A stretch of 64,000 nt of DNA, taken from positions 64,001-128,000 of the IMG/VR virus record IMGVR_UViG_3300046522_000316; one strand, 5' to 3'. The position numbers and the translations under genes were made by a program. Positions 4,291 to 57,097 of this stretch are shown one piece after another. The stretch is from a virus. Its lineage: Duplodnaviria > Caudoviricetes. The notes beneath the pieces are model-generated. The model searched no databases. It was not told where the DNA came from and saw only the letters and a list, made by a program, of their open reading frames with translations. Every line of letters begins with the position of its first letter. Positions within the stretch are counted from its first letter, which is position 1.

Positions 4291-4299
4291 TGGTTGTTC

Positions 4300-4605
4300 C
4301 TATTTACGAGTCCATGAGAGTTCCAAATCGTAACCGAGTTTGGTGGCGATCACGATTAACACATCGAGGTCGGCATGCACCAATTTCTCATGGTCATTTT
4401 CTGGAACTTCGTCATAGAAATACGGAGTGAGTTCGCGATTCAGCGGCCCGCCCATGACAAGGTATTTACTGCGCACAAATTCACGAAAAAGGCGGTCATG
4501 GTCGAGACGCGGTTTGCCCTTGAGTGAGGGCCGGGATTGACGATCCAATTCGTTGATGATCAGAGCGTAAAGTTCCCGCTTCATTTTATTTACAGTATGG
4601 TTCAT
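4300..4605 (-). CDS. Hypothetical protein
   Basis: ATG at 4605 overlaps the upstream stop (ATGA), so it is preferred over the 4653 start. Confidence 0.7.
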   Translation of the reverse strand: MNHTVNKMKRELYALIINELDRQSRPSLKGKPRLDHDRLFREFVRSKYLVMGGPLNRELTPYFYDEVPENDHEKLVHADLDVLIVIATKLGYDLELSWTRK

Positions 4606-4994: not shown

Positions 4995-5308
4995 GCGAGA
5001 TTCCTGTGACGAAGGCGCAGGCAGGAGCCGGGATAAAGAACTTTCGGATCAAACAGATTATTGATGAACGCCACACGGTCGGCGTCCACTTCAAAACGCT
5101 GTGCAATCTCCACCAATTTGTCGTTGGTTTTGATGTGGTAAATGTTGTAGCGGTCGCCCAGTTCACGTTCGTACTGAACATCGCTGAAACATTCGGCGGG
5201 CGGCGTGTAAACGCAACGTGTGCGAAAGATCGGAACGTCCAGCGGATTCAATTGCGCGGCCAGCATTTCGATTTGTTCTTCGCGGTCTAGCTCGACAACT
5301 GCATTCAT
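4991..5308 (-). CDS. LysM-domain protein
   Basis: YHIKTNDKLVEIAQRFEVDADRVAFINNLFDPKVLYPGSCLRL fits the LysM consensus. Confidence 0.75.
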   Translation of the reverse strand: MNAVVELDREEQIEMLAAQLNPLDVPIFRTRCVYTPPAECFSDVQYERELGDRYNIYHIKTNDKLVEIAQRFEVDADRVAFINNLFDPKVLYPGSCLRLRHRNLA

Positions 5309-5715
5309 TGGGCGTCCTCAACGGATTTATAACGATCTTCCCACTCAACAGCCGGGGGATTTTCTGGATCGAATTCGTACAGGCCTTCGTGGCCCGTGAT
5401 TTCCGAAATGGTGATGCGACGATTACCGCCACGGCTCCCGGCTTCCCACACTTCACAATCGAAGAAAGCAACGAGAACATCACGCAGCGTAGGGAACAAT
5501 TCTTTGATTCGTTCCCAACTTTCGTTTTCAAGCATTTCGGTGACGTAAACCCACGACGCATCCTCTTCCGCACGCAGCACGCAGTGGATTGGTTCCTGCC
5601 CACGAATACGGATTTCTTCAAACGTGAGTTTCAGTTTCAGAAGTTCATGCATCGCCATCGTCGTCACCGGGTTTTTCGTTGATAAGGGCCAGACCTTTTT
5701 TGGTGGCCCAACCAC
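5305..5715 (-). CDS. Hypothetical protein (true start probably an internal Met near 5655)
   Basis: Coupled ORF in the operon. Confidence 0.65.
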   Translation of the reverse strand: MVGPPKKVWPLSTKNPVTTMAMHELLKLKLTFEEIRIRGQEPIHCVLRAEEDASWVYVTEMLENESWERIKELFPTLRDVLVAFFDCEVWEAGSRGGNRRITISEITGHEGLYEFDPENPPAVEWEDRYKSVEDAQ

Positions 5716-5896
5716 TGTTCAGGCTCACACCGTAGTCGATGTATCCGCGATCCGCTGCACGCTCCATTGCGCGCCAGCAAACTTTTTCGGATTCACCGGT
5801 TGTTTCAATCAATACGGCGAGCGGAGATAACGCGAATTCTTGCCGCCAGACATAAGCATCAACCACCATGCGATCGGTTACGTCTTTCCGGGCCAT
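5645..5896 (-). CDS. Small phage protein, possibly winged-helix
   Basis: EKVCWRAMERAADRGYIDYGVS..GW.T.KG pattern resembles a small phage protein family. Confidence 0.7.
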   Translation of the reverse strand: MARKDVTDRMVVDAYVWRQEFALSPLAVLIETTGESEKVCWRAMERAADRGYIDYGVSLNSGWATKKGLALINEKPGDDDGDA

Positions 5897-5899
5897 TTT

Positions 5900-6247
5900 T
5901 TAATCCCCTGTAATTGGTTTCCAAAGTTTCGCGTATTTCAAAACATTCGGAAGGTTGTCACTCTGCACGGGCAGCACCACAAGGCACGACGGTTCCCCGT
6001 TGCAGATTGTGTTTTCGTGGCCTTGGTGACATGCCAAAGTTTCACGGATTTTATCGAACTCACGGCGAGTAACACGCACCGTTACTTTGCGGAAAGAGTG
6101 AATAAACCATTCGATGTATTCGGGATATTTTGGATCGTCGAAAATCGTATGGGCAGTCAGGATGGAATGCGCAACCAATGTCGGCACCATGTAATCAGGT
6201 GCTTCGTCGAGAACTGCGATGTACATTTTGCTGTAGCGTTCGTTCAT
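5900..6247 (-). CDS. Peptidyl-tRNA hydrolase type 2 (Pth2)-like protein
   Basis: KMYIAV...VAHS...W...FRKVTVRV...SCLVVLP follows the Pth2 motif order. Confidence 0.6.
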   Translation of the reverse strand: MNERYSKMYIAVLDEAPDYMVPTLVAHSILTAHTIFDDPKYPEYIEWFIHSFRKVTVRVTRREFDKIRETLACHQGHENTICNGEPSCLVVLPVQSDNLPNVLKYAKLWKPITGD

Positions 6248-38024: not shown

Positions 38025-38861
38025 ATGACTCTTTTATCAGTGGATGGCACGAACACAATGCACCGGGCGTATCACGCTATTCGCCCGTTGAGTTACCGGG
38101 GATTTCCCACGCACGTGATTAGCGGGTATTTTTCGATCCTGCGTTCCAATCTGAAAATCACGGGTGCGAAATTCTGCCTGAACTCGTTTGACCGCCCCGG
38201 TAGAAATTTCCGGCATGAATTGCTGGATAACTACAAAGGCGACCGTCCAAAAGACGAAGAGAAAAGTAAATCCATTGCAAAACAGTTGCCGGTGATTGTG
38301 GAACTGCTGGACGCGATGGGGTTTGCGATATTCGGGCGCGTCGGCGTAGAAGCTGACGACGTGATTGGTTCGACTGCTGCGAATTACACGGGCGGTCTGG
38401 CCTATATCCTTTCCAGCGACAAAGATTTCGCGCAGGAATTGATTCACAAACACGTTCGCCTGATCAATCCGAACAAACAGATGACCATTAGCCGTAAAAA
38501 CTGTAAAGAAATATACGGGGTTGAAGCAAAACGAATGATCGACTTCCTAATGCTGGATGGGGATAAGGTCGATTGCATTCCGGGTATTCCCGGCGTTGGC
38601 GGCAAAACCGCAATCAAGCTGATTGAGGAATTCGGAAAGGCGGAAAACATTCCCCATGACCGGTTTCCAAAGAAGGCGCGAGAAACTGTAAATACAAAGA
38701 AGATTCTGAAACTCAATCGACAGCTTGTAACCATACGGCACGACCTGTACGATGCGAATAAGGAATTGGATTTATCAATTTCTAAAGTGAACGTGAAAGC
38801 ATTCACGCGCATTTGCGATAAATATGGATTGGACTCGTTGAAAAAGTCCGTCCTGAAGTAA
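38025..38861 (+). CDS. 5'-3' exonuclease / flap endonuclease (PolA N-terminal/Xni-like)
   Basis: DGTN...RAYHA, EADDVIG, SSDKD and GDKVDCIPGIPGVGGKTA. Confidence 0.92.
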   Translation: MTLLSVDGTNTMHRAYHAIRPLSYRGFPTHVISGYFSILRSNLKITGAKFCLNSFDRPGRNFRHELLDNYKGDRPKDEEKSKSIAKQLPVIVELLDAMGFAIFGRVGVEADDVIGSTAANYTGGLAYILSSDKDFAQELIHKHVRLINPNKQMTISRKNCKEIYGVEAKRMIDFLMLDGDKVDCIPGIPGVGGKTAIKLIEEFGKAENIPHDRFPKKARETVNTKKILKLNRQLVTIRHDLYDANKELDLSISKVNVKAFTRICDKYGLDSLKKSVLK

Positions 38862-38931: not shown

Positions 38932-39513
38932 ATGACCGAAGTAGCCGTAGTAAAACTGTCGAAGAACGAAACCGCCGCTGTCAAAGCCGTTGCCGCTGCT
39001 GCCAAAACTCTGGAAGGCCTGAAAGCCGACCTGAAAACCGCGCAGACCGTTGTTCGCTCGAACGCCAAGCTGGCTCTGACCACCGCGCCGAAAGTCGTGA
39101 GCAATCTGCAAAAGAACGTCGGTTCCGTCGTTGAAACTCTGCAACAGGCCGTACTGGCCGCGACCACCGAACTGAACGACGCGAAAACCGCGCTGACCAA
39201 CGTTCGTTCGACCGAAAAAGCAGAAGCCGCGCAGAAAGCAAAAGACGCCAAAGCCAAACAACGCGAAGCCGACAAAGCAGCCGCTGCCAAAAACAAAGCC
39301 GCCAATGCCAAGCCTGCTGCCGCCGCTGTCGTTGCCGCACCGGTCGTGAAAGCTCCGAAAGCAAAAGCTGTTGCTGCCCCGGCTGCTGCCAAAGCTCCGA
39401 AAGCAAAAGCTGCTGCCCCGGTTGCCAAAGCTCCGAAAGTTGCCAAGGCGCCGAAAGCTGCCGCTGTTGTTGCTGCGCCGAAAGCCAAAGCTGCGAAAGC
39501 TGCAAAGGCATAA
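38932..39513 (+). CDS. Histone-like Lys/Ala-rich protein
   Basis: Coiled-coil N-terminus; C-terminal AKAPKA repeats. Confidence 0.75.
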   Translation: MTEVAVVKLSKNETAAVKAVAAAAKTLEGLKADLKTAQTVVRSNAKLALTTAPKVVSNLQKNVGSVVETLQQAVLAATTELNDAKTALTNVRSTEKAEAAQKAKDAKAKQREADKAAAAKNKAANAKPAAAAVVAAPVVKAPKAKAVAAPAAAKAPKAKAAAPVAKAPKVAKAPKAAAVVAAPKAKAAKAAKA

Positions 39514-39547
39514 GCCTTAGATCCGTAGCGGGTCTGTAGCAAAACCG

Positions 39548-39577
39548 AAAGCGGCCTAGAAATAGGTCGCTTTTTTT
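39548..39577 (+). terminator. Rho-independent terminator
   Basis: AAAGCGGCCTA-GAAA-TAGGTCGCTTTTTTT. Confidence 0.85.
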
Positions 39578-39596
39578 ATTTCTGCGGGAGAAAAAC

Positions 39597-40397
39597 ATGT
39601 TCAACGCTAGCGGAATTGTTCAAAACATTCTGAGTGGCAGCGTCACCTATTCTGAATTGCTGCGCGATATCGCCACTGTGCAGCAAATGAGTTCCAACGC
39701 CATCGGTGCAGATTACATTGTCAACATGCTGGCCGCTCTCGGTTGCCGTCTTTCTCTCGACGGTGAAAAACTTATCACCGTTCCTTTTGATGCCAGCGTT
39801 ACCGTTACAACTCCGAATCACATGCGTGCGGCTGGGAATGATCTTCCATTCATCAAATCCGAACCGTTCGTGTTGCTGCCAAACTGGCAGGATCTTTATG
39901 CACGCGTCGAAGTTATGCTGCCCGGCAAAACCGAATCGCTGTTGGTAATCGCCTATCGCGAAACCCTGAACATGCAAAACACGTTCGCCGCGCAAGGTCG
40001 CCGCGTTCCATCGCAAATGGTTTGCTTCCCTGTCATGTCGTTGAATGACGGCAAGGTCAAACTAGCGCGCATGTCGCTTTTCAGTTTCATGAAAGGTTCT
40101 GCGGCCTTCTTGAATGGTGGCGCCTGCACCATCGTCGGCCATCACGCACGCAAACGCATTCAAGCGTGCGCCGCGCAACTGAATCACAGCCATGACCCGG
40201 TTAAAGCAATGGCCGAGGCCGAACAGGCGTTGAATGCATTGCGCGCCGACTACCAACAGCCGAACACCCTTACATATGAACAGGGCTGCATGCTGCGTAC
40301 CTTGCTGGACACGCGCAAACGCAATGCAAAGGCCATTCAGGCGGGTATGGGCACCATTCATAACGAACCAAAGGGGCAAGGCGCTAATGGCGCTTGA
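39597..40397 (+). CDS. Hypothetical protein
   Basis: 266-aa ORF with a GGAG RBS. Confidence 0.75.
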   Translation: MFNASGIVQNILSGSVTYSELLRDIATVQQMSSNAIGADYIVNMLAALGCRLSLDGEKLITVPFDASVTVTTPNHMRAAGNDLPFIKSEPFVLLPNWQDLYARVEVMLPGKTESLLVIAYRETLNMQNTFAAQGRRVPSQMVCFPVMSLNDGKVKLARMSLFSFMKGSAAFLNGGACTIVGHHARKRIQACAAQLNHSHDPVKAMAEAEQALNALRADYQQPNTLTYEQGCMLRTLLDTRKRNAKAIQAGMGTIHNEPKGQGANGA

Positions 40398-40422
40398 CCC
40401 TATGAAGGCCCTTTGATACCTT
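40394..40422 (+). promoter_or_regulatory. Sigma70-like promoter overlapped by a hairpin
   Basis: TTGACC-17 bp-TACCTT; overlapping GAAGGCC...GGCCTTC inverted repeat. Confidence 0.45.
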
Positions 40423-40614
40423 AAAGGCCTTCCGTAACGTTTTGTGCCTGATGCATTAGCGCTCACGGAATAAGGGAAGTTTGTAGTTGCTGCCTTATAT
40501 AGGCATGCGCCACCGCCTGTTCTGCGATGTGCGTTTGCCGTTGGTAGTTCGCCGCCCTCGGCAAAAAATGCACAGTCGATAAACGACACTAACGAAATTT
40601 GGAAAGTTGGAGAT

Positions 40615-42531
40615 TTGGAAATGACTATTCTTAAAGGCCAGACCGTAAACGTTAACCACGGCAAGAAAGGCGTATTCAAAGAGACGGTGAAAATCGTCCT
40701 GAAGAACGGCACCGTTCGCACCGAGGAAGGTTCCGAGTTCAACACCGCCGACATGTACAACAAAGGCAAAGGCAAATTCGTTGACCTGAAAGGCGGCGTC
40801 GTGAAGAAAACCGCCGCTGCTGCCGCTGCCCCAGCTGCAAAAGCTGAACGCCCTGCACCGCCGACCATCACTTTCAAAGAACTGGAAGAGAAAGCGCGCA
40901 AAATCAACGGCATCGAAATCGAAAGCCTGAAGCGCAAAGACGGCATTGTCATTCTGGCCGATGGTTCGTCGGTTGCAATCGGTGACATTTCCCGCAAGGG
41001 CAAAGGTTACGGCGCTGACGTTGTGACCCCTGCGCCGAAAGCTGGCAAGAAACCTGCCGCTGTTAAAGCTGCGACCGAAAAAGCCCCGGTGAAAACTTCC
41101 GGCGTTAAGCCAGCTGCAAAAACTGCTGCCCCGGCAAAAACTGGCGGCGCAGTGAAGAAAGTAAAAGCGGCCCCGGCTGACGAAAACGCATTTGACGAAG
41201 GCGCGCTGTATGGCCCGGCTGGTCAATACGAAACTTCCGACGTTCGCGGCAAGACCATCGACTTCAACGGCGACGACGTGAAAGTGGTTAAAACCTTTTC
41301 GTCCGGTCGTTGCGTTCTGGAAAACGGCGAAGAATTCCAAGCCGACGAAATCCGCAAACGTCACGATGGCCGTTTCTGCGTGTATTCCGATGAATACATC
41401 GACGAACTGAAAGAACTGCACGAACAAGCCAACACCCGTGCGAAGGCAATTCAAAAGGCCAAAGACACGCCGAAGCCTGTAACGTCGCGCAGCTTCAAAA
41501 AGAACGTGACTCAAGTTCTGGTCGGCAAGAAAATGCAAATTGTTGAACGTATCCTGACCACTGGCGTAATCGTCATGGATTCCGGGTTGCGTATTGCAAT
41601 TGCTGACGTTGAACAGCAAGGCGCAAAACTGGTTTACGTCGGTGCTGCATCGACCAACCAGAAAGCCGGTGGCGCATTGCCGAAAACCCGCGAAGTTCCG
41701 CCGTTCGAGAAAAAGATCGTTCGCGTTTCTGAATTCGACGACGACACCGCGCAAGACATTTGCGATTTGCTCGAAGAAAACGTGCGCAAAATCATGGCGG
41801 GCGAATATGACGTTCAACTGGTTTCGTCGTTCGCCGGTCGCGGCACCGAATTCTGCACCGTTGCATTCAGCTTCGCGATTGCCGACGCTGACCCGGCGCG
41901 CATTCAGGAAATGGTTGCACGTCAACGCGCTGAAAACTTCGCGGACGACGAAGGCAGCGACCTCGACCCGCACCAGCTGACTCCGAACGCCGACGACATT
42001 CCTGAAGAGGAAGAGGAAGAGCAGGAAGAGGAAGAAGAACAGGAAGAAGAGGAAGAGCAGGAAGAGGAAGAAGAACAGGAAGAAGAGGAAGAGCAGGAGG
42101 AAGAAGAGGAACAGGAAGAAGAGGAAGAGCAGGAGGAAGAGGAAGAGGAACAAGAAGAATTGGAAGAGGAAGAGCAAGCCGACTTCCCTGAAAACCAAAC
42201 CTTCGCCGCTGCCGAAACTTCTTTCCCTATCGACACCTCGGAACTGGTCGGTGACGCTTCGGCCCGTATGGCGAAAATCGTTCCTACTGCCAAGTATCAA
42301 GGCGCAATGCGCAAAGCCGCTGCTGCGTGGTACGAATCGCAAGATGCGTACACCAATTTCGGTTATGCCATTGAACCGGGTTCGACTATCGAAGACGCAG
42401 GTCAAACCTACCTGTTCATCGGCCTGCGCGGCGATGCGGTCGGCCTGATCAACGTTGCGAGTGAAACCGTTCGTTCGGTGGACTTCGAAAAATTCGTTGA
42501 GATTTGCGAAGCCAACGGCATCGAAATCTAA
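40615..42531 (+). CDS. Multidomain protein with internal ~35-aa repeats, a K/A-rich linker and an (EEEEEQ)n tract
   Basis: 638-aa ORF; repeats visible in the translation. Confidence 0.85.
   Translation: MEMTILKGQTVNVNHGKKGVFKETVKIVLKNGTVRTEEGSEFNTADMYNKGKGKFVDLKGGVVKKTAAAAAAPAAKAERPAPPTITFKELEEKARKINGIEIESLKRKDGIVILADGSSVAIGDISRKGKGYGADVVTPAPKAGKKPAAVKAATEKAPVKTSGVKPAAKTAAPAKTGGAVKKVKAAPADENAFDEGALYGPAGQYETSDVRGKTIDFNGDDVKVVKTFSSGRCVLENGEEFQADEIRKRHDGRFCVYSDEYIDELKELHEQANTRAKAIQKAKDTPKPVTSRSFKKNVTQVLVGKKMQIVERILTTGVIVMDSGLRIAIADVEQQGAKLVYVGAASTNQKAGGALPKTREVPPFEKKIVRVSEFDDDTAQDICDLLEENVRKIMAGEYDVQLVSSFAGRGTEFCTVAFSFAIADADPARIQEMVARQRAENFADDEGSDLDPHQLTPNADDIPEEEEEEQEEEEEQEEEEEQEEEEEQEEEEEQEEEEEQEEEEEQEEEEEEQEELEEEEQADFPENQTFAAAETSFPIDTSELVGDASARMAKIVPTAKYQGAMRKAAAAWYESQDAYTNFGYAIEPGSTIEDAGQTYLFIGLRGDAVGLINVASETVRSVDFEKFVEICEANGIEI
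42004..42175 (+). repeat. Coding tandem repeat of about 18 bp (EEEEEQ, about 8 units)
   Basis: GARGARGARGARGARCAG units. Confidence 0.9.
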
Positions 42532-42598
42532 TCGCGCCTGTTCCCACGCGGGGGAGCAATAAGAATCCCCCGCAAATTTAATTCCGAGGTAAAAGATC

Positions 42599-43735
42599 AT
42601 GAACGAATTTTTCAGCCGCTTGGTAGGATCTGCACACGTTGCAATCGCTGCCTTTTATCAGAGCCTGTTTTCGCAAGCTCTCAGTACCTCCGCCGATGAA
42701 TTGGCAGACTGGTACAAACTCGATCCGACCGAAGTCGATCTGGAAGACGGCGCAGAAATTTACGCCAAACGTATTTCGCTGCCGATTTGGGATTTGGTGA
42801 ATCCTGATCATGCGGCGGAAATTGCCAGTGACATGATGCTGGAACTCGAAGCCAAGCACGATATGCATTTGTGCAGTTACACCGGCGACGGCGAATTCAT
42901 CGTTTACATCACCAACGAAGAAATCGAACTCGACGCTTTGCGTTTGGCTTTCGACGACCTCGAAGAACTGGAAGAGGAAGAGGAAGAACTCGAAGAACTC
43001 GACGGTTCCGAACTTCAGCAACAACCGGAAAGCGGTCGCGTTCTTTCCATGGTTCCGCGCATCGACCAATCGGCCCCGGCCCATGCTGCGCCAGCCGTTG
43101 AAATCGAAGCGGATTTCCCCGAGGAAGATTTCCCCGAGGAACCGTTGATCGAAGAACCGGCCCCGGTCGCCGCTGTAGCCGCGCCAGCCGAGATTGCAGA
43201 CGCCGATCTGGTAGAGGAAGAACCTTTGCCCGAGGAAACGCCTGTAAACGAAGCACAGGCCGTTGCAGCGCCAACCGAAACCAACGCGCAAGCCGAAGCA
43301 CTGGCGAACGCATTGAATGGCGAACCAGCACAGGCCGTTGAACAGCCCGCGCCAGCACCAGCAGAAACCGAAGCCTCGGCACCGGTTGCAGAAGCCGCAC
43401 CAATCGACGACGTTGTTGATACCGGCCCGGTAAAAGAATCGCCGGAAATCATCGCGGCAATTCACGCGGAAAAAATGCAGCAACTGATGGGCATGTTGCC
43501 GTCTGACACCATGTCTGAAGTTGATGACAATACCGGCGTGCTGTCCCTGATGTACAGTCGTGACGTGAACGGCGAAAATGTGGATTACATCCGCAACATT
43601 CGCCTTGTAAATGAAAACTTCCAAAACATTCGTTATGTGGACGTTTTCTATGTCGAAGACGAAGCGGGTAAAGTGCTGCACCGCACGTCGAGCGTACAGA
43701 GCATTATCCAGCACTTGGATCATCTGAACGCGTAA
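42599..43735 (+). CDS. Acidic, Ala/Pro/Glu-rich protein
   Basis: 378-aa ORF with a central low-complexity region. Confidence 0.8.
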   Translation: MNEFFSRLVGSAHVAIAAFYQSLFSQALSTSADELADWYKLDPTEVDLEDGAEIYAKRISLPIWDLVNPDHAAEIASDMMLELEAKHDMHLCSYTGDGEFIVYITNEEIELDALRLAFDDLEELEEEEEELEELDGSELQQQPESGRVLSMVPRIDQSAPAHAAPAVEIEADFPEEDFPEEPLIEEPAPVAAVAAPAEIADADLVEEEPLPEETPVNEAQAVAAPTETNAQAEALANALNGEPAQAVEQPAPAPAETEASAPVAEAAPIDDVVDTGPVKESPEIIAAIHAEKMQQLMGMLPSDTMSEVDDNTGVLSLMYSRDVNGENVDYIRNIRLVNENFQNIRYVDVFYVEDEAGKVLHRTSSVQSIIQHLDHLNA

Positions 43736-43757
43736 CGCGAAACTGTAAATCAGAATG

Positions 43758-43787
43758 GAAGGGCTACCCTGTGGCCCTTCCTTTTTT
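43758..43787 (+). terminator. Probable terminator
   Basis: GAAGGGC...GCCCTTC followed by CTTTTTT. Confidence 0.65.
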
Positions 43788-43801
43788 CATTTCTGGAGCC
43801 T

Positions 43802-44263
43802 GTGCATATGATTCACCGCAAACGCAGCGAAAAAATCGAAAACATTTACATGGCGTTGGGCATGCTGGAAAAAGATCCGCGCCGTGAAAAATTCGAAATG
43901 GACATGACCCTCACTTCCCTAATCGGCCCGAACATCGCGTTGAAAACTTCGCACTACGAAGCGGTTATCACCGTTCCGTTCGAAGGGCAGATTGTCATTC
44001 TCGAAATCGACGGGGCCAAACAGCGCTTCGCTGATTACGCCGCGTTCCTCGAATTCTTCCTGCGCTCTTTGGAGCCTGCCCGCCCGGCTACCCTTGCCCT
44101 TGCTGCTGTAATGCCCGATGGCGTCCGCTTGGGCAACTCGGTGGCGTTTGAGCGCAACGGCGTGCGCTACCTGTGCGTTGAAAAAGACGGCCAGTTCGAA
44201 GTGCGTTACAACAGTCAAATGATGGTAATGCCGCACGACGACATTGCCGCCGTTTTCGGTTGA
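43802..44263 (+). CDS. Hypothetical protein
   Basis: ORF with a GGAG RBS. Confidence 0.7.
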   Translation: MHMIHRKRSEKIENIYMALGMLEKDPRREKFEMDMTLTSLIGPNIALKTSHYEAVITVPFEGQIVILEIDGAKQRFADYAAFLEFFLRSLEPARPATLALAAVMPDGVRLGNSVAFERNGVRYLCVEKDGQFEVRYNSQMMVMPHDDIAAVFG

Positions 44264-44583
44264 TCATCCGAGGGATAAAGATGGAACTGGCAGAATTTGT
44301 TTCGCACGTTTTGCAATTTGCAGAACATGACGAAATTGCAATTACGAACCATCCCCTTGATATGCATCCTTTCGAGGCTGCTATCGCCCTCAACAGCGCG
44401 TTGGCCCTTGTGCCCGATGGTGAAGCCGTAAAAGTTTTCGGCACCACTGGCGACACACTTATTATCGTGCGCGTGTCGGCCATTCCTGAATATCGTGAAG
44501 CCATTGAATTCGGTTGCGATAAACGACACGCTGAAGAAATCAAACAAATTTGCGAGCGCCCGAACAATGCAGCTACTGACTAG
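44260..44583 (+). CDS. Hypothetical protein
   Basis: Coupled ORF. Confidence 0.65.
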   Translation: MIIRGIKMELAEFVSHVLQFAEHDEIAITNHPLDMHPFEAAIALNSALALVPDGEAVKVFGTTGDTLIIVRVSAIPEYREAIEFGCDKRHAEEIKQICERPNNAATD

Positions 44584-45853
44584 CACTCTCCATCACCTGT
44601 ACGAAAAAGGAATTCTCAAAACGTGCGAACCAACGCATGATTTCGAGTCGTATTCGTATGAGTACATGGGCCGACTGGTTAAGCAGCCCGTTACGGTTGG
44701 TACGCGTATGAAAAAATCAGACCTGTTGAATATCGTGCGCAGTGCGTGCGATGGAAACCTCGAAGACATGGCAACCGTCGCCATGCTTTACAACGTAGGC
44801 TTTGGCCTGCCGTTTGATCGTGAACGCGCCGTAGCGTGGATGCAATATTCGTTGGTGAATCCATCGAGCCAGTTCGACGCCGAATGTGAGTACGCGATTA
44901 AATGCGCAGAGGAAGCGCCGGACGTTTCCTATCCGGACTCGCTGATTTATCCGTGTCTGGATATCGTGCGCAAAATTCACGATCATAAAAACACTGGCAC
45001 CATTCGCAAAGGCTGTTCGGTTCTGCCGCGCTTTAAAGGCGTGCGCGTGTATTTGATTTATCGCACGCAGCCCGGCGTAACGCCGCATCTGTACGCAGGC
45101 TTTTATCATGACAAGGAGAATTATTTCCTTGCGCTGGATAAACTGGTTGCGTTGGGTGCGCCGCGCTATTTCGGTGAACTCCGGGGCCGCGTAACGATTC
45201 CGGAATACACGCCGTTCGGCCACAATGCGATGTATGTAATTGCTGGCACCGTTTACATTCCCGAATCGAAACGGAATGGCGACAAGATCAGCAAAGTGTT
45301 CAAAGAATTCCTGACGGATGAAACGCCGCAGCTGACACCGCAACACTTCAGCGTTGACGACACTGTTGCCATGCTGGAAGAGGCGCAGAAAACTGTAAAT
45401 ACTATTACACGGTCACAGAGCCGATTGGCGGAACAAGGTAAGGCCATTCCTTTGGAGTCGCTGCAACAATTGCAGAAGGCAAACAAACGAGTAGAACAGC
45501 TTACGGCACAGGTAAAGAACGCCAACCCGGAAGCCGAGTATCAGGCCTATCTCAAATCGCGCCCTGAAGCCCGTCTGCGCTTCGTTGCGACTGAAATGTA
45601 CCGCTGGAACCGGGACGGACTTAAAACCGTTCCAATGGGACGCCAGCAGCACCAGCAAATGCAATCGTTAGGGTTTCACAGCCTCACGCATCCAGCCCTC
45701 GAATTCGTTGGTCATGTCGCAGACACAACCGACGTGCGTGAAACTGTAAATAAATTCGAGAAGGCTATGGACGCAAAGGTATCTGCCTTAATCATTCAAC
45801 CCGGCCCCGAATCGACGGTTCGGTTTGTAGACGTTACGAGGATTGATCTGTGA
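44567..45853 (+). CDS. Degenerate NAD-dependent DNA ligase adenylation-domain-like protein with a Sel1-like repeat
   Basis: PRFKGVRVYLIY (cf. KxDG motif I), IAGTVYIP, LRFVATE, MQSLGF and SALIIQP in LigA motif order. Confidence 0.55.
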   Translation: MQLLTSTLHHLYEKGILKTCEPTHDFESYSYEYMGRLVKQPVTVGTRMKKSDLLNIVRSACDGNLEDMATVAMLYNVGFGLPFDRERAVAWMQYSLVNPSSQFDAECEYAIKCAEEAPDVSYPDSLIYPCLDIVRKIHDHKNTGTIRKGCSVLPRFKGVRVYLIYRTQPGVTPHLYAGFYHDKENYFLALDKLVALGAPRYFGELRGRVTIPEYTPFGHNAMYVIAGTVYIPESKRNGDKISKVFKEFLTDETPQLTPQHFSVDDTVAMLEEAQKTVNTITRSQSRLAEQGKAIPLESLQQLQKANKRVEQLTAQVKNANPEAEYQAYLKSRPEARLRFVATEMYRWNRDGLKTVPMGRQQHQQMQSLGFHSLTHPALEFVGHVADTTDVRETVNKFEKAMDAKVSALIIQPGPESTVRFVDVTRIDL

Positions 45854-46788
45854 GCAATGACATTTCGTACAACGAAGCACATGAGCAACAATTGAAATCG
45901 AGCGAGCGCCAATTGGGCACCGCTACCGAACCGGAAAACGTTACACGTTACAAAGAAAATATTCCGGTTAAAGTTGCCGGTGAATTCCCGGTGCGAATTG
46001 TGCCGCGTGTTGAAGTGGTATTCGGCGCCGTGCTGAATACTGTAAATGAAGTAATAGAACAGCACAAAACGCTGACGCCTTTGATCGGCCACGACAACGG
46101 CGTAGTGGAAGAGGAAGACAATTCGGTTTCCCTCTACAGTCCGCTTTCGCGCAAATACAACGGCGCAGCATTGCAGCCGCTGGAATCGCTTTACGAATTC
46201 CTTGCAGCCCTTGAGCTTGAGCAATATTTGATTGTCTGCGAAGACTCGGTATTGCAGCAGCGCATTCAAGGTCTGATCGACACCCTGCATTCGCAATTGC
46301 AGGATACGTTCGGTGGCCCGGCCTTCGAACAACACGGCCTCGATTTTTCCGTGGCCCGCAGTGATTATTTCTCTACCAGCGTCACGCAGTACACGGTGGA
46401 AGAGAAAACTGTAAATAATATTCATCTGGTGATTCGTGTGTACATTCACGCGGCCAGCTTGACGAATACCCCTGACGATCCTGTCGAAGCTATTAACAGC
46501 GCATTCGGTGCGCCTTACCGGCAAGTGATCAAAAACTTCGCGACTGCAACCAAGATCAAAACGCAGATTGCAGTTGCATTTGATGTTTCTAATTTCACTG
46601 TACGGCCTAACCTTCTGACTCTGTTCACCGCGCTTTGCGCAGAACCGGGCGCACAAGCGGACGCTGTAAACAAAGACGATCATATCGACGCAAACGTAAT
46701 TGTTTCCGTCGCGCTGACAAACCCAAACGCCAAGGTGAAGACTGCCCCGAAAAAGGGTGTGGCACCGGCAAAACGCAAAGGTAGTTAA
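45850..46788 (+). CDS. Hypothetical protein with a basic C-terminus
   Basis: 312-aa ORF. Confidence 0.75.
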   Translation: MSNDISYNEAHEQQLKSSERQLGTATEPENVTRYKENIPVKVAGEFPVRIVPRVEVVFGAVLNTVNEVIEQHKTLTPLIGHDNGVVEEEDNSVSLYSPLSRKYNGAALQPLESLYEFLAALELEQYLIVCEDSVLQQRIQGLIDTLHSQLQDTFGGPAFEQHGLDFSVARSDYFSTSVTQYTVEEKTVNNIHLVIRVYIHAASLTNTPDDPVEAINSAFGAPYRQVIKNFATATKIKTQIAVAFDVSNFTVRPNLLTLFTALCAEPGAQADAVNKDDHIDANVIVSVALTNPNAKVKTAPKKGVAPAKRKGS

Positions 46789-46793
46789 ATCTC

Positions 46794-47351
46794 ATGGCAA
46801 AGCCAGAAAAAACCGTTAAAGCAAAAGCACGCACCAAAGTTTCCCGTCTCGACAAAGCCCTGCGCAAGCTGACCGGCACCAGCGCCAAAACCCCGTTCAG
46901 CATGAAATCCGGCGTGTTCACCGTGACCGGCTTCAGCGTTGTTCCTGCCGAAGTTCCGGGCTACCTGATCGACCGCACCGCGACCCACACCATCTATCGC
47001 CACAAGGCCACCAGCGCCTCGAAGAAAATGGTTGTGTCCGTGTTCGCAAACTCCGACGTTCTGCAACTGCTGGGCGGCAAGGAAGGCGGTAGCGTTACCG
47101 TTCGCCGTCGTTCCGCTTTCACCAGCGCAACCGGCACCCTGAAATTCGACGGCACTTCGGTTATCGTTACCGACACTGACGGCGGTGTTGCCGTGTTCGA
47201 TCTGGCCGCTGGCGATTACGAAATCAAAGCAGCCGATACCGAAGGTTCGCAAACTTCCGGTCGTGGCGTGAAATCGTCTTCCGACGAAGGCAAGAAGAAA
47301 AAGAAAGTCGTCGATATCAAAGAAGGCGGCAAGAAAAAAGCAAAAAAGTAA
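46794..47351 (+). CDS. Basic protein with a poly-Lys tail
   Basis: Strong codon bias; ends GKKKKKVVDIKEGGKKKAKK. Confidence 0.8.
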   Translation: MAKPEKTVKAKARTKVSRLDKALRKLTGTSAKTPFSMKSGVFTVTGFSVVPAEVPGYLIDRTATHTIYRHKATSASKKMVVSVFANSDVLQLLGGKEGGSVTVRRRSAFTSATGTLKFDGTSVIVTDTDGGVAVFDLAAGDYEIKAADTEGSQTSGRGVKSSSDEGKKKKKVVDIKEGGKKKAKK

Positions 47352-47409
47352 CTAACACCCGGTACATGGGCGACCTCGACTGAGCGCGCCCGTGACCACC
47401 TCGCAGTAA

Positions 47410-47455
47410 ACTGTAAATACACTGTACAAGATGTGCAGTGCAGAAAACTGTAAAT
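47410..47455 (+). promoter_or_regulatory. Tandem ACTGTAAAT motifs upstream of the poly-Glu gene
   Basis: Exact copies at 47410 and 47447, plus an ACTGTACAA variant at 47421. Confidence 0.7.
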
Positions 47456-47494
47456 CTCTTTCAGCAACATCAATCAATATATCTGGAGTTATTC

Positions 47495-48001
47495 ATGGCT
47501 AAGCCAGCACCAAAGAAATCCGCCGCCAAATCCAAGCCAGCCCCGAAGAAAGCCGGCAAGAAAAAATCGGCTCCGGAAATCACCGCTGACGATCTGAACC
47601 TGATCAACATGGATGTGCTGTCGCAAATCCTGATCGCGTTCCAAGACAAAGGCTTCGAAACCATCGAAGACGTGATCGGCGCCGTGCAGCAACTGATCGA
47701 AAGCGAAGAGGAAGAGGAAGAAGAGGAAGAAGAGGAAGAAGAGGAAGAGGAAGAAGAGGAAGAGGAAGAGGAAGAGGAAGAGGAAGAAGAGGAAGAGGAA
47801 GAGGAAGAAGAGGAAGAGGAAGAGGAAGAGGAAGAAGAGGAAGAGGAAGAAGAGGAAGAGGAAGAGGAAGAGGAAGAGGAAGAAGAGGAAGAGGAAGAAG
47901 AGGAAGAAGAGGAAGAGGAAGAGGAAGAGGAAGAGGAAGAGGAAGAGGAAGAGGAAGAGGAAGAGGAAGAGGAAGAAGAGGAAGAGGAAGACGACGAATA
48001 A
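47495..48001 (+). CDS. Bipolar protein with a basic N-terminus and a 95-residue poly-Glu tract
   Basis: ATG at 47495 after a GGAG RBS; MAKPAPKK...IES-E95-DDE. Confidence 0.85.
   Translation: MAKPAPKKSAAKSKPAPKKAGKKKSAPEITADDLNLINMDVLSQILIAFQDKGFETIEDVIGAVQQLIESEEEEEEEEEEEEEEEEEEEEEEEEEEEEEEEEEEEEEEEEEEEEEEEEEEEEEEEEEEEEEEEEEEEEEEEEEEEEEEEEEEEEEEEEEEEEEEEDDE
47705..47989 (+). repeat. 285-bp pure-purine (GAA/GAG)n tract
   Basis: 95 consecutive GAR codons. Confidence 0.95.
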
Positions 48002-48065
48002 TCGTCTCTGATCTTCTGATCTGAACCGCTTCGAAATTCTCCGACTTCTTTCGATCTGAGAATTC

Positions 48066-48098
48066 AAGAAACCCGGTAAAATCGCCGGGTTTCTTTTC
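48066..48098 (+). terminator. Rho-independent terminator
   Basis: AAGAAACCCGG...CCGGGTTTCTTTT. Confidence 0.85.
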
Positions 48099-48141
48099 GC
48101 CTAAAATCGGCATTCTGAAAATTTAAGGGAACACGAACATC

Positions 48142-48747
48142 ATGGCTAAGAACGATCTGACCATTAACGGCAAATCCGAAATCGGTCGTCTGCGCAAGCA
48201 GCAGCGCGCTCTGGAACAATCCAGCAAAGCGCAAGAAAAAGCACTGGAAGTAACCAACGGCCAAGCAACCGAAGTTGCTGAGCAAATCGCTACCCTCGAA
48301 GCTCAACTGAGCGGCGAGCCGGTCAAAGCTGCCAAAGGCGGCAAGAAAGCCAAGGGCGACGACAAGCCAGCCAAAGGCGGCAAGAAAGCCAAGGCCGAAG
48401 AAAAGCCTGCCAAGAAATCCAAAAAAGACGCCGAAGAAAAACCGGCCAAAGGCGGCAAGAAAGCCAAAGCTGAAGACGTGAAGCCTGCCAAGAAGTCGAA
48501 GAAAGCTGACAAGGAAGACGCGGCCCCGGCCAAGAAATCCAAGAAAGCCGACAAAGACGAAGCTCCGGCCAAGAAGTCCAAAAAGGCTTCGAAAGAAGTA
48601 GAAGCGCCGAAGAAAAAGAAAAAATCCAAGGACGTTGAAACCGACGCTCCGAAGAAAAAGAAAAAGTCGAAAGACGCTGACGCCAAGAAAGTGAAAAAAG
48701 GCGACAAGAAAAAGAAATCCAAAGACTTCGACGAATTCGAAGACTAA
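48142..48747 (+). CDS. Lys-rich histone-like protein
   Basis: N-terminal coiled coil, then AKGGKKAK (3 copies) and PAKKSKK/PKKKKK repeats. Confidence 0.8.
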   Translation: MAKNDLTINGKSEIGRLRKQQRALEQSSKAQEKALEVTNGQATEVAEQIATLEAQLSGEPVKAAKGGKKAKGDDKPAKGGKKAKAEEKPAKKSKKDAEEKPAKGGKKAKAEDVKPAKKSKKADKEDAAPAKKSKKADKDEAPAKKSKKASKEVEAPKKKKKSKDVETDAPKKKKKSKDADAKKVKKGDKKKKSKDFDEFED

Positions 48748-48775: not shown

Positions 48776-48795
48776 GGGGGCCATTGGCCCCTTTT
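48776..48795 (+). terminator. Rho-independent terminator
   Basis: GGGGCC-ATT-GGCCCC-TTTT. Confidence 0.75.
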
Positions 48796-49767: not shown

Positions 49768-50422
49768 CCATTTTAATTGTGGCTGCGTAGTGGTCGGGGA
49801 TATCCCTTCAATCACACGGTGCGAAGAGCATGGCGGTTGCATTGTCGCCTTCCACAATCAGAATGTGCCTGCACGCCGCTGGAGTAATGAGGCACAAGAC
49901 CTCAACGTGTGGCAGGGAACACTGCTGCACAATCTCCGCAAAATCAAAGACGAATGTTTTTCCTACATTTTCGCATACCCGGAACTCAACGCGCTCGGCC
50001 CCATGAATTTTCTACGGCCCGAAGCTTGGCGGAATGCGGATATGGAAATGATGCGCCACCTGAAACGCATTTTAAAACCGGGCGGCTACATTTCCTTTGT
50101 CGTTGATCCAAGCGTGCTGCATACAGTGACCTATCAAGTCAGCAAATTGAAAATGAAAATCGACGTGCGCGGTTGCATTCTTGATCGCTTCGACGCTTCC
50201 CCATCTTCGACGCTGGCCTACTCGGTCGCAGATGCCAAAGTGCATCTAATCGTGTACAACGAATATCGGGATAAAATCCCAAAATCGGGTAGCCGCATTC
50301 TGGATCTTAGCGGGCTGAAACTATCCTACGTTTTGAAACGGAAAAGGAAAAACAAATTACTGGTTCTAGCAGGACACCCGTACCACTTTGATAAAGTGAC
50401 GGCGCGTCTAGAGGACGCCTAA
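49733..50422 (+). CDS. DNA N6A/N4C methyltransferase-like protein, degenerate, with an N-terminal Cys/His cluster
   Basis: LRKIKDECFSYIFAYPE (cf. DPPY), RILKPGG and RILDLSG (cf. FxGxG). Confidence 0.6.
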   Translation: MKCMSHLDTMINHFNCGCVVVGDIPSITRCEEHGGCIVAFHNQNVPARRWSNEAQDLNVWQGTLLHNLRKIKDECFSYIFAYPELNALGPMNFLRPEAWRNADMEMMRHLKRILKPGGYISFVVDPSVLHTVTYQVSKLKMKIDVRGCILDRFDASPSSTLAYSVADAKVHLIVYNEYRDKIPKSGSRILDLSGLKLSYVLKRKRKNKLLVLAGHPYHFDKVTARLEDA

Positions 50423-51084
50423 TGGCAGTCAAGACGAAAAAGGTGAAGGTACAGTCGGTTAAGAAATCGAAAATCATCACCAAACCGAAAAAGACACAGG
50501 CCACACGCGAAGCAGAAAAGACCAAAGAGCGAAAGCGTAAATCGACAGCGGCCCCGGTGCGCTCTGCCGGTCGAATTAAAGTGGCGGGCATTCCGTACAA
50601 GCTGCGTAAGTTCGAAAACTTGGGCGCTCGCCCGATGCCCGAAACGTTCTTCACACGACAGGGCAAAAGTCTCAAGGATCTAATCCGAAATACGTTCCGC
50701 ATTTGCATCAACAATGCCGTGGACGTTGAGGCGCACCGTTACCAAAGCACCACGACGAAAGCCGGGCGCAAAGCCGTCAAAGGGATCATGTGGACGAATG
50801 ACCCGTTCCGCCCTGACCGCGTGCGTCGATACCACGAAACGTACATCGTGGGTCTGGATAAAAACGGCGAAAATAAACCACTGATGAAACACAAGCGGGT
50901 GCTTGTGCAATGCACGTGTGAAAACTACGTGTACTGGTGGGAATATGCGAACGCCCGTTGCGGTGCTGCGTACCTGATTTATTCCAACGGTGAACCGCCC
51001 GTGTGGACAAACCCCGGCATGTCGGTAGGCCTGTGCAAACATCTTGTGGCCCTGTCGAAAATTGTCATTGAAGAAAACCTCTGA
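50422..51084 (+). CDS. SWIM zinc-finger protein with a basic N-terminus
   Basis: VQCTCENY...GLCKHLVAL (CxCx(n)CxH). Confidence 0.8.
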   Translation: MAVKTKKVKVQSVKKSKIITKPKKTQATREAEKTKERKRKSTAAPVRSAGRIKVAGIPYKLRKFENLGARPMPETFFTRQGKSLKDLIRNTFRICINNAVDVEAHRYQSTTTKAGRKAVKGIMWTNDPFRPDRVRRYHETYIVGLDKNGENKPLMKHKRVLVQCTCENYVYWWEYANARCGAAYLIYSNGEPPVWTNPGMSVGLCKHLVALSKIVIEENL

Positions 51085-55779: not shown

Positions 55780-55788
55780 ACTGTAAAT
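55780..55788 (+). promoter_or_regulatory. ACTGTAAAT motif upstream of the ssb-like/recA operon
   Basis: Exact intergenic motif. Confidence 0.7.
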
Positions 55789-55846: not shown

Positions 55847-57097
55847 ATGGCGACCGCCGTTTTTAAAGGCATGGGCAGCATCCGCACCAACAGTGGCAAG
55901 GGTGATTCGCTCCGCTTGGACGAAGTTGTTGATATCATCCAGTGGCCGAAAAACAAATATTTCCTGTTCCGCATTTTGCCGATCATGCCGCTGCAAGTGC
56001 GTCAGGTCTGGATCAAACTGTGGGCCGGTGGCAAGGGCAAAGAAAAACGCGAAGTGAACATTCCGCGTTACGCTATCGACTTCGATCCGAACGATCCGGA
56101 AACCCCGAAAAAAGGCGTGAAGTGCCCGTACATGGCGCTGGCCGACAAGTTCAAAGGCCAGAAAGAAAAGCCGGTGCGTGCGTCCGACTTCTGGTTGTTC
56201 AACGTGATCGACCGCGACATGCAGGAAGAAGGCCCGCCGCGTAAAGCGTCGAAGCCAACCAAGGAAGAAAAGAATTCCGGTTTCAAGGATATCAATTCTG
56301 AAACTTGGACTCCGGTTCGCGTTGCGCGTCTGACCATGACTTCGATCAACCGACTGCAAGAACTGTCGGAAGAAAACAAAATCAAGTCGAAGAAATCCGG
56401 CAAAACCGCGCAGTACGACGTATCCGATGCGAAGTATGGTTTCGACACCAAACTGAAATTCAAACCGGACGCAGCGGGCACCGACAAATACACCATCGAC
56501 AAAGCGGACGGCCCTACCCCGCTGAGCGACGAAGAGCAAGGCTATCTGACGTGGAACCTCACTGAAGAACTTCTGGACGCCACCGGTCGCATGACCGAAA
56601 AGGCTGCGAAGGAAGACGTTAAGCGTATGGAAATCATCGGCGGCGAAGAACTCGACGATGATGACGAAGACGAAGACGAAAAGCCGAAGAAAAAGAAAGG
56701 CAAATCCACTTCGCTCGACGACGATGACGACGAAGACGAAAAGCCGAAGAAAAAGAAAAAGAAATCTTCCATCGACGATGACGATGATGAAGACGAAAAA
56801 CCGAAAAAGAAAAAGAAGTCCAAGTCCATCGACGACGATGACGACGAAGACGAAAAGCCGAAGAAAAAGAAAAAGTCTTCGGACAAAGACGCCAAGTCTT
56901 CCAAGGTGAAAAAGAAGTCGAAGTCGGACGACGATGACGACGAAAAGCCGAAGAAGAAAAAGAAGGCCAAGGAAGAAGAAGCTCCGAAGAAAAAGAAAAA
57001 ATCTTCGGACAAGGACGAGAAAGGCGGCGCCAAAAAGAAAGTGAAGAAAGACGCCAAGAAAGGCAGCGGCAAGAAAAAGAACGCGTGGGATGACTAA
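55847..57097 (+). CDS. Putative T4 gp32-like ssDNA-binding protein with an alternating acidic/basic tail
   Basis: FRILP...CPY...WLFNVIDR core; position directly upstream of recA. Confidence 0.55.
   Translation: MATAVFKGMGSIRTNSGKGDSLRLDEVVDIIQWPKNKYFLFRILPIMPLQVRQVWIKLWAGGKGKEKREVNIPRYAIDFDPNDPETPKKGVKCPYMALADKFKGQKEKPVRASDFWLFNVIDRDMQEEGPPRKASKPTKEEKNSGFKDINSETWTPVRVARLTMTSINRLQELSEENKIKSKKSGKTAQYDVSDAKYGFDTKLKFKPDAAGTDKYTIDKADGPTPLSDEEQGYLTWNLTEELLDATGRMTEKAAKEDVKRMEIIGGEELDDDDEDEDEKPKKKKGKSTSLDDDDDEDEKPKKKKKKSSIDDDDDEDEKPKKKKKSKSIDDDDDEDEKPKKKKKSSDKDAKSSKVKKKSKSDDDDDEKPKKKKKAKEEEAPKKKKKSSDKDEKGGAKKKVKKDAKKGSGKKKNAWDD
56655..56960 (+). repeat. Coding tandem repeat DDDDDEDEKPKKKK(K) (about 5 units)
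   Basis: GACGATGACGACGAAGACGAAAAGCCGAAGAAAAAG-like units; bounds approximate. Confidence 0.85.

Follow-up and report, generated by a model that had tools for sequence, protein, structure and literature searches.

A set of six genes for strongly charged proteins, conserved as a unit in charge rather than in sequence, lies within the replication, recombination and topology region of a giant soil Pseudomonas phage, a Lu11/HRDY3-like jumbo phage analysed here over a 64-kb window (the whole stretch of DNA studied; all coordinates refer to its + strand). Our tentative interpretation, held at somewhat less than even confidence, is that these genes form a conserved, highly expressed "polyelectrolyte cassette" of the Lu11/PaBG/Alexandra-type replication/recombination module, acting through bulk charge and not enzyme activity. 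No paper on this cassette or on its proteins emerged from a literature search, and the words histone, condensate and disordered are absent from a 2026 jumbo-phage review.

The charged proteins

The six charged open reading frames listed in the initial annotation were confirmed in position and composition, with net charges from +28 (48142-48747) to about -96 (47495-48001). Searches of Pfam, NCBIfam and PHROGs returned no informative family for any of them: PHROG matches were only to families of unknown function, and low-complexity matches (CBM77, cobaltochelatase, YSIRK lipase) fell below threshold. Sequence searches against solved structures gave no match, and family and fold searches found no domain of known DNA-binding fold. 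Fold searches used two AlphaFold models against the PDB (Foldseek, VIA-align) together with the ESM Atlas; these produced only weak small-barrel or coiled-coil matches, and real relatives, all uncharacterised, came from a viral structure library alone. The charged families are lineage-restricted orphans with neither a Pfam nor a significant fold match. Paralogy among their N-terminal domains was rejected on comparison. The proteins had also been described as disordered, which holds for the charged tracts only; most of the 185-aa protein is modelled confidently as a beta domain, and parts of the 638-aa protein are also folded (four small beta repeats and two further folded regions).

The K/A-rich protein (38932-39513; 193 aa, net +24) consists of a ~105-aa helical N-domain and an H1-like Lys/Ala/Pro tail. 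Among its orthologues (net +18 to +29) the N-domain is conserved and the tail drifts, and a large database holds only three homologues, all from the same phage lineage. Its nearest Atlas clusters are bacterial "histone H1-like"/HC2 proteins, no more than a lead at scores of 0.84-0.86 (0.84 for an HC2-bearing cluster) and TM 0.56; the likeness to H1 is confined to tail composition. At a Pfam cut-off of E <= 0.01, neither HC2 (PF07382), Linker_histone (PF00538) nor any other family matched this protein or the Lys-rich protein (48142-48747), and no family, Linker_histone PF00538 included, matched the basic 185-aa protein.

The 638-aa protein (40615-42531; net -54) carries four ~45-aa beta repeats with Lys/Ala linkers, an alpha/beta domain, an (E5-6 Q)n tract and a C-terminal domain, as judged by composition and an AlphaFold model of mean pLDDT 62.7. 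Its orthologues have net charges of -44 to -70, and only four homologues occur in the large database. The N-terminus of the open reading frame, MEMTILKG, rests on a doubtful TTG start, and orthologues begin MS..; translation probably starts at the ATG at 40621 instead. The repeats gave weak SH3-like, PRC-barrel or Tudor matches within the chance range (Foldseek E >= 0.3), and the best VIA-align rows for repeat 1 lie at Z 4.8-5.5, with the PRC-barrel row (3htr) at Z 4.8, again in the chance range. The acidic 378-aa protein (42599-43735; net -68, orthologues -59 to -81) has a Glu/Pro/Ala-rich linker between conserved N- and C-terminal domains. Neither this protein nor the 638-aa protein had a usable match in the Atlas. 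Lu11 gp158, an orthologue of the 378-aa protein, is annotated as a polyphosphate kinase; no Pfam, NCBIfam or PHROG match supports this for 42599-43735, and low-complexity sequence seems to have prompted the label. The labels "Utp1-like" (PaBG gp125) and "ATPase" (the HRDY3 acidic head-region protein) likewise look like low-complexity artefacts.

The other three genes form a core triad, the first member of which is the basic 185-aa protein (46794-47351; net +18, phrog_22271). A Lys-rich N-terminus and a Lys-rich C-tail flank its confident beta domain (residues 42-146), and 30 homologues were found, all of this lineage. Yoloswag, AD1 and a Yersinia phage also encode homologues. In the viral structure library, the modelled fold recurs in proteins of PaBG and Erwinia phage Alexandra. 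Foldseek against the PDB returned nothing significant for this protein; Hfq/Lsm rows reached Z 4.2-5.6 over 44-66 aligned residues, within the chance range (as are the Sm/Hfq and SH3-like matches at Z 5-5.6), and the Atlas Hfq row had a TM of 0.27. Gp231 and gp232 of Erwinia phage Y3 were ruled out as counterparts by hhalign; the true homologue sits elsewhere, adjoining topoisomerase II.

The second member, the poly-Glu protein (47495-48001; 168 aa, net about -96), contains 107 acidic and 11 basic residues, arranged as a Lys-rich N-terminus (~27 aa), a small conserved helical domain (~28-70) and a near-pure run of ~100 consecutive Glu. GAA and GAG alternate along the tract, identical codons never occurring more than twice in a row. 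Net charge among orthologues spans -56 to -107, the tract being a mix of Asp and Glu in Lu11, PaBG, Yoloswag, AD1 and the Yersinia phage, and one distant relative was found among 1.84 billion representatives. Neither HARE-HTH PF05066 nor any other Pfam family matched the protein, and phmmer against the PDB found nothing. The third member, the Lys-rich protein (48142-48747; 201 aa, 62 Lys, net +28, phrog_36478; orthologues +19 to +31), begins with a ~58-aa helical region predicted to form a coiled coil and ends in a conserved acidic-aromatic tip (DFDEFED); between these lie PAKKSKK-type repeats with acidic spacers (charge blockiness z 2.6). The tip, as [DE][FY][DE]F, is kept in all clades examined.

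Conservation, context and expression signals

The initial annotation treated the charged genes as a module and proposed synteny across related phages as a check. Orthologues of every charged gene occupy the corresponding positions in HRDY3, Lu11 and seven IMG/VR relatives, in the same order and with a near-constant net charge at each position, and the genes form a conserved unit within the replication/recombination/topology region. The order of the triad (basic beta protein, poly-D/E protein, Lys-rich protein with acidic-aromatic tip) is also kept in PaBG, Yoloswag, Dickeya AD1 and Yersinia fHe-Yen9-02, where only the beta domain can be aligned (~30% identity). Glu tracts vary from 59 to 112 residues, other clades have D/E mixtures, and the Lys repeat units differ; the cassette thus conserves charge rather than sequence. 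[quoted passage not shown] Three tightly packed, overlapping uncharged genes (107 aa, 428 aa and 312 aa; 44260-46788) lie directly 5' of the basic-protein gene, the 428-aa product belonging to phrog_35683, of unknown function.

The clustering described for this 10-kb region is statistically significant across a relative's genome but not within the window. Clustering is not significant in the 64-kb window (p ~0.1-0.2; 6 of 15 extreme genes among 11 consecutive genes, p ~0.10, or among 13 genes, p ~0.22) because such proteins abound throughout the replication region. It is significant when tested over the full genome of HRDY3, a close relative that served as background for genome-wide statistics (p = 0.002-0.006; 5 of 19 extreme genes within a stretch of 11, p = 0.006; 6 within a stretch of 15, p = 0.0016).

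The same charge theme extends to neighbouring genes. The SSB gene (55847-57097, with a promoter core at 55780-55788) matches the gp32-type phrog_15004 over its full length (residues 4-416, E 1e-117), and its product has a 160-aa C-tail of DDDDDEDEKPKKKKK-type blocks, encoded by a 57-nt tandem repeat, that holds 60 positive and 55 negative charges and is far blockier than shuffled sequences (z 10.8). The SSB of Erwinia phage Y3 has a like tail. Terminal Lys tails occur in HRDY3 in 11 of 111 DNA-region genes vs 8 of 326 elsewhere (OR 4.4, p 0.002) and in 0 of 59 structural genes.

Codon bias, noted earlier as strong, is real at synonymous sites as a shift to C-ending codons (fractions for ACC 0.74 vs 0.36, GGC 0.75 vs 0.51, CTG 0.65 vs 0.46, GAC 0.75 vs 0.54). 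Together with terminators and promoters of the phage middle/late class that also serves the SSB gene, it agrees with the proposed design for high expression. Within the window, 18 copies of the promoter core were counted vs 0.25 expected, always co-oriented with genes, and conserved phage promoters serve three of the charged genes. One core (ACTGTAAAT, 38685-38693) sits inside the 5'-3' exonuclease gene, in its 3' part, and precedes the K/A-rich gene by ~240 nt; HRDY3, Lu11, L007 and L011 (the latter two being further relatives) share this intragenic placement (+657 to +666). The core at 43742-43750 is conserved in HRDY3, L007 and L011; four in-frame intragenic cores (45392, 45743, 46039 and 46408) within the three uncharged genes are conserved in position in Lu11, L007 and L011; and two tandem cores (47410-47418 and 47447-47455) precede the poly-Glu gene at a site where Lu11 has two annotated middle/late promoters.

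Several of the genes had been credited with terminators of their own. Four strong hairpin and U-run sites bear this out (folding z -3.2 to -5.1): after the K/A-rich gene (39547-39574; 12-bp stem, -17.9 kcal/mol, z -3.2), directly after the 43742-43750 promoter core (43757-43781; z -4.5), after the poly-Glu gene (48068-48093; -19.9 kcal/mol, z -5.1) and after the Lys-rich gene (48776-48791; z -4.2). A fifth hairpin (42548-42573) is weak. A weak hint of transcription comes from RNA-library data of relatives, available as contigs only and with DNA carry-over possible: the contigs cover parts of five of the six charged coding regions, the SSB gene, and the promoter together with the 5' end of the poly-Glu gene. 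Several uncharged genes are not covered, so these contigs are unusable for ranking expression.

Candidate functions

An abundant, DNA-associated, intracellular role is favoured because the genes form a unit in the replication region, show an expression design and conserve their charge, and because their products are not among the abundant PaBG virion proteins and have no head-loading tag. The explanation we prefer, though still short of probable, is that abundant intracellular polyelectrolyte proteins coat phage DNA and are buffered by polyanionic partners. DNA binding, acidic-basic pairing and condensate formation are inferred here from protein anatomy, conservation, expression signals and context. 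The K/A-rich, basic beta-domain and Lys-rich coiled-coil proteins would bind phage DNA non-specifically through their Lys-rich tails, and the poly-Glu protein, the 378-aa acidic protein and the acidic tract of the 638-aa protein would form fuzzy electrostatic complexes with them and with other Lys-tailed proteins. Such polyanion complexes may maintain the basic proteins in a soluble, exchangeable state, much as H1 is handled by acidic histone chaperones. The complex of H1 with prothymosin-alpha is very tight although fully disordered (PMC7661507), and acidic disordered regions of histone chaperones act as DNA mimics (PMC10987829). The cassette and the blocky polyampholyte tail of the SSB could then gather phage DNA undergoing replication and recombination, along with Lys-tailed enzymes, into a charge-driven cytoplasmic assembly; the E. 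coli SSB condenses via its disordered linker (PMC7584906). The phage "chromatin" of the initial annotation fits at most the basic half of the cassette because half of the members are polyanions unable to bind DNA, and the acidic half needs another role as chaperone, competitor or DNA mimic. The Lys-rich tails are also compatible with RNA binding or with packaging alongside DNA.

A more specific extension of the preferred explanation, which we regard as improbable in this full form, is that phages of the Lu11/PaBG/Alexandra group replicate in a complex coacervate of poly-Glu and Lys-rich proteins and the SSB tail, without a protein-shelled nucleus. Terminal Lys tracts would serve as address tags drawing in topoisomerase, primase, nuclease, clamp loader and other enzymes, and the Lys-rich protein would tether the assembly to a replisome component through its acidic-aromatic tip.

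Among the alternatives, a packaging or capsid-content role is unlikely; in such a role the basic proteins would be counter-ions packaged with the genome, in the manner of T4 internal proteins or adenovirus protein VII, and the polyanions would be cytoplasmic chaperones escorting them, or the H1-like protein (+113; 1727-3130), to the prohead, or would themselves be packaged or scaffold-like. Extreme charge and a high-copy design with middle/late promoters suit this role, the PaBG virion proteins (Table 1 of that study) include gp202 and several "unknown" proteins, and another acidic protein of HRDY3 (-60) adjoins its head protease and capsid genes. However, PaBG gp124-gp136 (numbering checked against the paper's supplement) are absent from the 14 virion bands of a Coomassie gel, a method poor for proteins of extreme charge. 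The head-loading tag ME[LM]x[LI]A[LIV]A[AGS], derived from the HRDY3 cargo cluster and the mark of neighbouring cargo genes, is absent from all six N-termini, and in every clade its linkage is with topoisomerase II, SSB and UvsX, not with head genes. An anti-host function, in which the polyanions would be DNA mimics soaking up MvaT/MvaU, HU, restriction enzymes or other DNA-binding defences and the polycations would coat or condense host DNA for shutdown, has a rather low probability. Highly acidic phage proteins that mimic DNA are known (Ocr, Arn and Gam), and the acidic members, at net -54 to about -96, are designed for abundance. Against this, the promoters are of the phage sigma-type class common to the SSB gene, not the early class; the pure poly-Glu tract would seem to lack the shaped charge pattern of known mimics; and phages infecting Pseudomonas, Erwinia, Dickeya and Yersinia share the same build, an indication that the partner is phage-internal.

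Least probable, in our estimate, is the absence of any common function, with unrelated proteins (e.g. RNA-binding Sm-like, multi-SH3 adaptor and coiled-coil proteins) each gaining charged low-complexity tails. The N-domains are indeed not paralogous, charged tails are widespread in the region and clustering in the window is not significant; but triad order, charge signs and the acidic-aromatic tip are kept in five clades with almost no sequence similarity there, and genome-wide clustering in HRDY3 is significant. The question is directly testable because the cassette occurs in isolated, culturable phages (Lu11, PaBG, HRDY3, Yoloswag and AD1).

Comparison with known systems

Like the T4 internal proteins IPI-III and adenovirus core protein VII, which accompany DNA, the basic members are small, basic and, by design, probably abundant; unlike them, the cassette has no head-loading tag, is not among the abundant PaBG virion proteins and lies in a replication module. 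The Lys-rich protein shares an acidic C-terminal tip (acidic-aromatic and conserved in this case) with E. coli SSB, T7 gp2.5 and T4 gp32, but has no OB fold, and its tip differs from DDDIPF. Compared with the E. coli SSB linker, the giant disordered tail of the phage SSB is a blocky polyampholyte and far more charged. The K/A-rich protein resembles Pseudomonas AlgP/PhaF (C-terminal AAKP repeats) and Chlamydia Hc1/Hc2 in joining a helical or coiled-coil N-part to a Lys/Ala/Pro repeat tail, whereas it has no Pfam or NCBIfam match and its N-domain is confined to the phage lineage.

The delta subunit of Gram-positive RNA polymerase, RpoE, is a protein of ~170 aa in which a small N-terminal domain precedes a Lys tract and a ~90-residue poly-Asp/Glu tail. 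The poly-Glu protein is similar in overall build, and its gene lies near that of the phage sigma factor; in contrast, it has no detected HARE-HTH, its helical domain is only ~45 aa and its hosts are Gram-negative.

A parallel in the proposed charge-based function is H1/prothymosin-alpha, and the acidic disordered regions of nucleoplasmin/Nap1, in which a disordered Lys/Ala polycation is partnered by a long, uninterrupted Glu/Asp polyanion (PMC7661507, PMC10987829). The phage cassette differs in having no sequence or domain homology to this system, no H1 globular domain and no nucleosomes, and its polyanion has a Lys-rich N-terminus and a small helical domain of its own. Its polycation and polyanion, a putative pair, are encoded by adjacent genes with conserved charge. 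A natural protein with a run of ~100 Glu, kept in phages that infect four host genera, offers an unusually clean polyelectrolyte model. If the preferred explanation is correct, charge-driven pairs of phage-encoded polycations and polyanions would be a second route to DNA compartments in giant phages, besides the phiKZ-like chimallin nucleus, and the cassette would offer a genetically tractable counterpart, in minimal form, to the H1/acidic-chaperone system.

The charged genes and their proteins

All six charged ORFs described in the initial annotation were confirmed in the window, with the composition claimed for each: a K/A-rich protein (38932-39513), a 638-aa protein (40615-42531), an acidic 378-aa protein (42599-43735), a basic 185-aa protein (46794-47351), a poly-Glu protein (47495-48001) and a Lys-rich protein (48142-48747). 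They are among 15 genes of extreme charge in the 83 called with a codon model. The poly-Glu protein contains a nearly pure Glu run of about 100 residues, encoded by alternating GAA and GAG so that at most two identical codons are consecutive. Synonymous usage is clearly shifted (ACC, GGC, CTG, GAC), as claimed, and the genes' own terminators were recovered as a strong hairpin with a U-run at four genes and a weak hairpin at a fifth. The description of the proteins as disordered holds for the charged tracts and fails for the remainder, since in AlphaFold models the 185-aa protein contains a confidently predicted beta domain, and the 638-aa protein four copies of a beta domain of about 45 aa and two more folded regions, with low-confidence linkers.

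The cassette families are orphans. Pfam and NCBIfam hold no family for any charged protein, PHROGs matches are to families of unknown function, and matches in very large protein sets are confined to this phage lineage (4 for the 638-aa, 30 for the 185-aa, 3 for the K/A-rich and 1 for the poly-Glu protein). Fold searches gave weak Sm/Hfq and SH3-like barrel matches for the 185-aa protein and weak PRC-barrel/Tudor-like barrel matches for the 638-aa repeats, all within chance range. Common descent of the N-domains was rejected, as they are mutually unrelated. The database labels "putative polyphosphate kinase" (Lu11 gp158), "similar to Utp1" (PaBG gp125) and "ATPase" (HRDY3 226749-227717, an acidic protein of charge -60) look like low-complexity artefacts; the last of these, whose gene lies next to those for head protease and capsid, is possibly scaffold-like.

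Conservation and clustering

The window derives from a jumbo phage whose DNA-level match to Pseudomonas phages HRDY3 (74%) and Lu11 is weak and whose gene order is identical to theirs; PaBG is a remoter relative. Metagenomes of soil, rhizosphere, plant and food origin, from 13 studies, contain near-identical DNA. Synteny bore out the cluster: for every charged gene, orthologues occupy the corresponding position in HRDY3, in Lu11 and in seven IMG/VR contigs, and across these genomes net charge is near-constant for the K/A-rich (+18 to +29), 638-aa (-44 to -70), acidic 378-aa (-59 to -81), basic 185-aa (+14 to +19), poly-Glu (-56 to -107) and Lys-rich (+19 to +26) proteins. Folded parts align well; tracts vary in their length (59 to 112 Glu) and in their unit, the Lu11 tract consisting of D/E mixtures instead of pure Glu. 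PaBG gp136, gp131, gp126, gp125 and gp124 repeat the charge pattern.

By structure comparison, PaBG and Erwinia phage Alexandra also have proteins with the structure of the 185-aa protein. These matches led to further genomes that carry the window's triad of basic, poly-acidic and Lys-rich proteins in unchanged order: Erwinia phage Yoloswag, Dickeya phage AD1 and Yersinia phage fHe-Yen9-02. In these phages the triad consists of a basic protein with the beta domain (+13 to +16), a poly-D/E protein of charge -89 to -105 and a Lys/Ala-rich coiled-coil protein (+27 to +28) with an acidic-aromatic C-terminal tip (DEDFDFEVA, EEDFDFEME and DDEFEFDV); after the triad comes topoisomerase II. The tip, [DE][FY][DE]F, likewise occurs in the window's Lys-rich protein (DFDEFED) and in PaBG. 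The strongest sign that the charged genes form a functional unit is this retention of order and charge across clades in which one domain alone is still alignable.

Two genes 5' of the triad lie giant acidic proteins of about 1,000 aa (-174 to -186), at 2965-5946 of the Yoloswag locus L020 (gp318), 1-2391 of the AD1 locus L021 and 1-2464 of the fHe-Yen9-02 locus L022; no similarity to the window's 638-aa and 378-aa acidic proteins was detectable.

Clustering of extreme-charge genes, implied by the term cluster, was not significant inside the window (p about 0.10 to 0.22) but was significant in the complete HRDY3 genome, where 19 of 437 called genes are strictly extreme in charge. Five fall within 11 consecutive genes (p = 0.006) and six within 15 (p = 0.0016). 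The 33-kb SSB-to-primase block accounts for eight of the 19, the tail/baseplate block for none.

Genomic setting and promoters

The cassette is preceded by two topoisomerase II subunits and a 5'-3' exonuclease, and followed by a conserved SWIM-like basic protein, a phage sigma factor, SSB and a UvsX-like recombinase. The SWIM-like protein (50422-51084; +28; phrog_18980) has a CxC...CxH motif and a Lys-rich N-terminus; its gene is the best conserved of the block, with tblastn matches in 84 phage records, among them phages of Burkholderia, Vibrio, Ralstonia and Achromobacter. In locus L006 it is contained in an ORF of 563 aa. The SSB (55847-57097) ends in a 160-residue tail of poly-Asp/Glu blocks alternating with poly-Lys (60 positive and 55 negative charges; blockiness z = 10.8 versus shuffles), whose DNA is a 57-nt tandem repeat of 3.8 copies (56652-56875) encoding DDDDDEDEKPKKKKK blocks. 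An analogous tail, assembled from other repeats, is present on the SSB of Erwinia phage Y3. In HRDY3, terminal Lys tails occur in 11 of 111 DNA-region genes versus 8 of 326 elsewhere (OR 4.4, p = 0.002) and in 0 of 59 structural genes; carriers include a topoisomerase subunit, nuclease, primase, metallopeptidase and clamp loader (examples of Lys-tract genes: 152726-153670, 158453-159589, 159603-160721, 170552-171790 and 172592-173776).

The window contains 18 copies of ACTGTAAAT, the core of the middle/late promoter annotated in Lu11, for an expectation of 0.25, and each is co-oriented with the genes. Two stand in tandem 5' of the poly-Glu gene, an arrangement shared with Lu11; a further copy is found 5' of the SSB gene, and one lies within the exonuclease gene, 5' of the K/A-rich gene. 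Four more (45392, 45743, 46039 and 46408) are intragenic, in the two genes preceding the basic protein gene, in frame and each reading Thr-Val-Asn. Intragenic positions are kept in Lu11 and the IMG/VR relatives, though the Lu11 record annotates intergenic promoters only; these cores look like a promoter ladder that would boost expression of the downstream basic gene. Another core lies, unusually, 6 nt 5' of a strong terminator hairpin (43742-43781), so transcripts from it would start with the terminator stem-loop. In RNA libraries, contigs from relatives span portions of five of the six coding regions, together with the poly-Glu promoter and 5' end, and the SSB gene; such contigs neither permit a ranking of expression nor rule out DNA carry-over.

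Possible roles and known systems

The cassette, read in the initial annotation as a phage chromatin/nucleoid module, may be an electrostatic DNA-organising system, the favoured though tentative reading, in which abundant basic proteins would coat phage DNA and polyanionic partners would buffer them. A role in packaging or capsid content is doubtful: PaBG gp124-136 are not among the 14 abundant PaBG virion proteins (PMC7412058; numbering checked against the supplement), and the head-loading tag ME[LM]x[LI]A[LIV]A[AGS], derived from HRDY3's neighbouring cargo cluster, was found in none of the six charged proteins. The 638-aa ORF as called from TTG (40615-40623) begins MEMTI..., superficially like the tag; this is probably an ORF-calling artefact, because its orthologues begin at the equivalent of ATG 40621. 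Together, the absence from PaBG virions and the lack of a tag weakly favour an intracellular role.

An anti-host DNA-mimic role for the charged proteins is conceivable but unlikely. That they share no common function would suit their unrelated N-domains and is quite improbable given the conserved order and charge.

For the DNA-organising reading, H1 with prothymosin-alpha is a model of a basic protein with a polyanionic partner (PMC7661507), and acidic chaperone IDRs that act as DNA mimics are a second parallel (PMC10987829). E. coli SSB assembles via its linker (PMC7584906), and the cassette proteins may likewise assemble with the SSB tail, driven by charge; a very recent report describes phage LLPS for SPO1 (PMC13401047). 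No conserved phage cassette pairing poly-Glu with Lys-rich proteins in a replication module turned up in the literature searched. The separate parts resemble known kinds, namely H1-like tails, acidic chaperones and SSB-type tips, and we propose the phage basic proteins and polyanions as a possible analogue of H1 and prothymosin-alpha.
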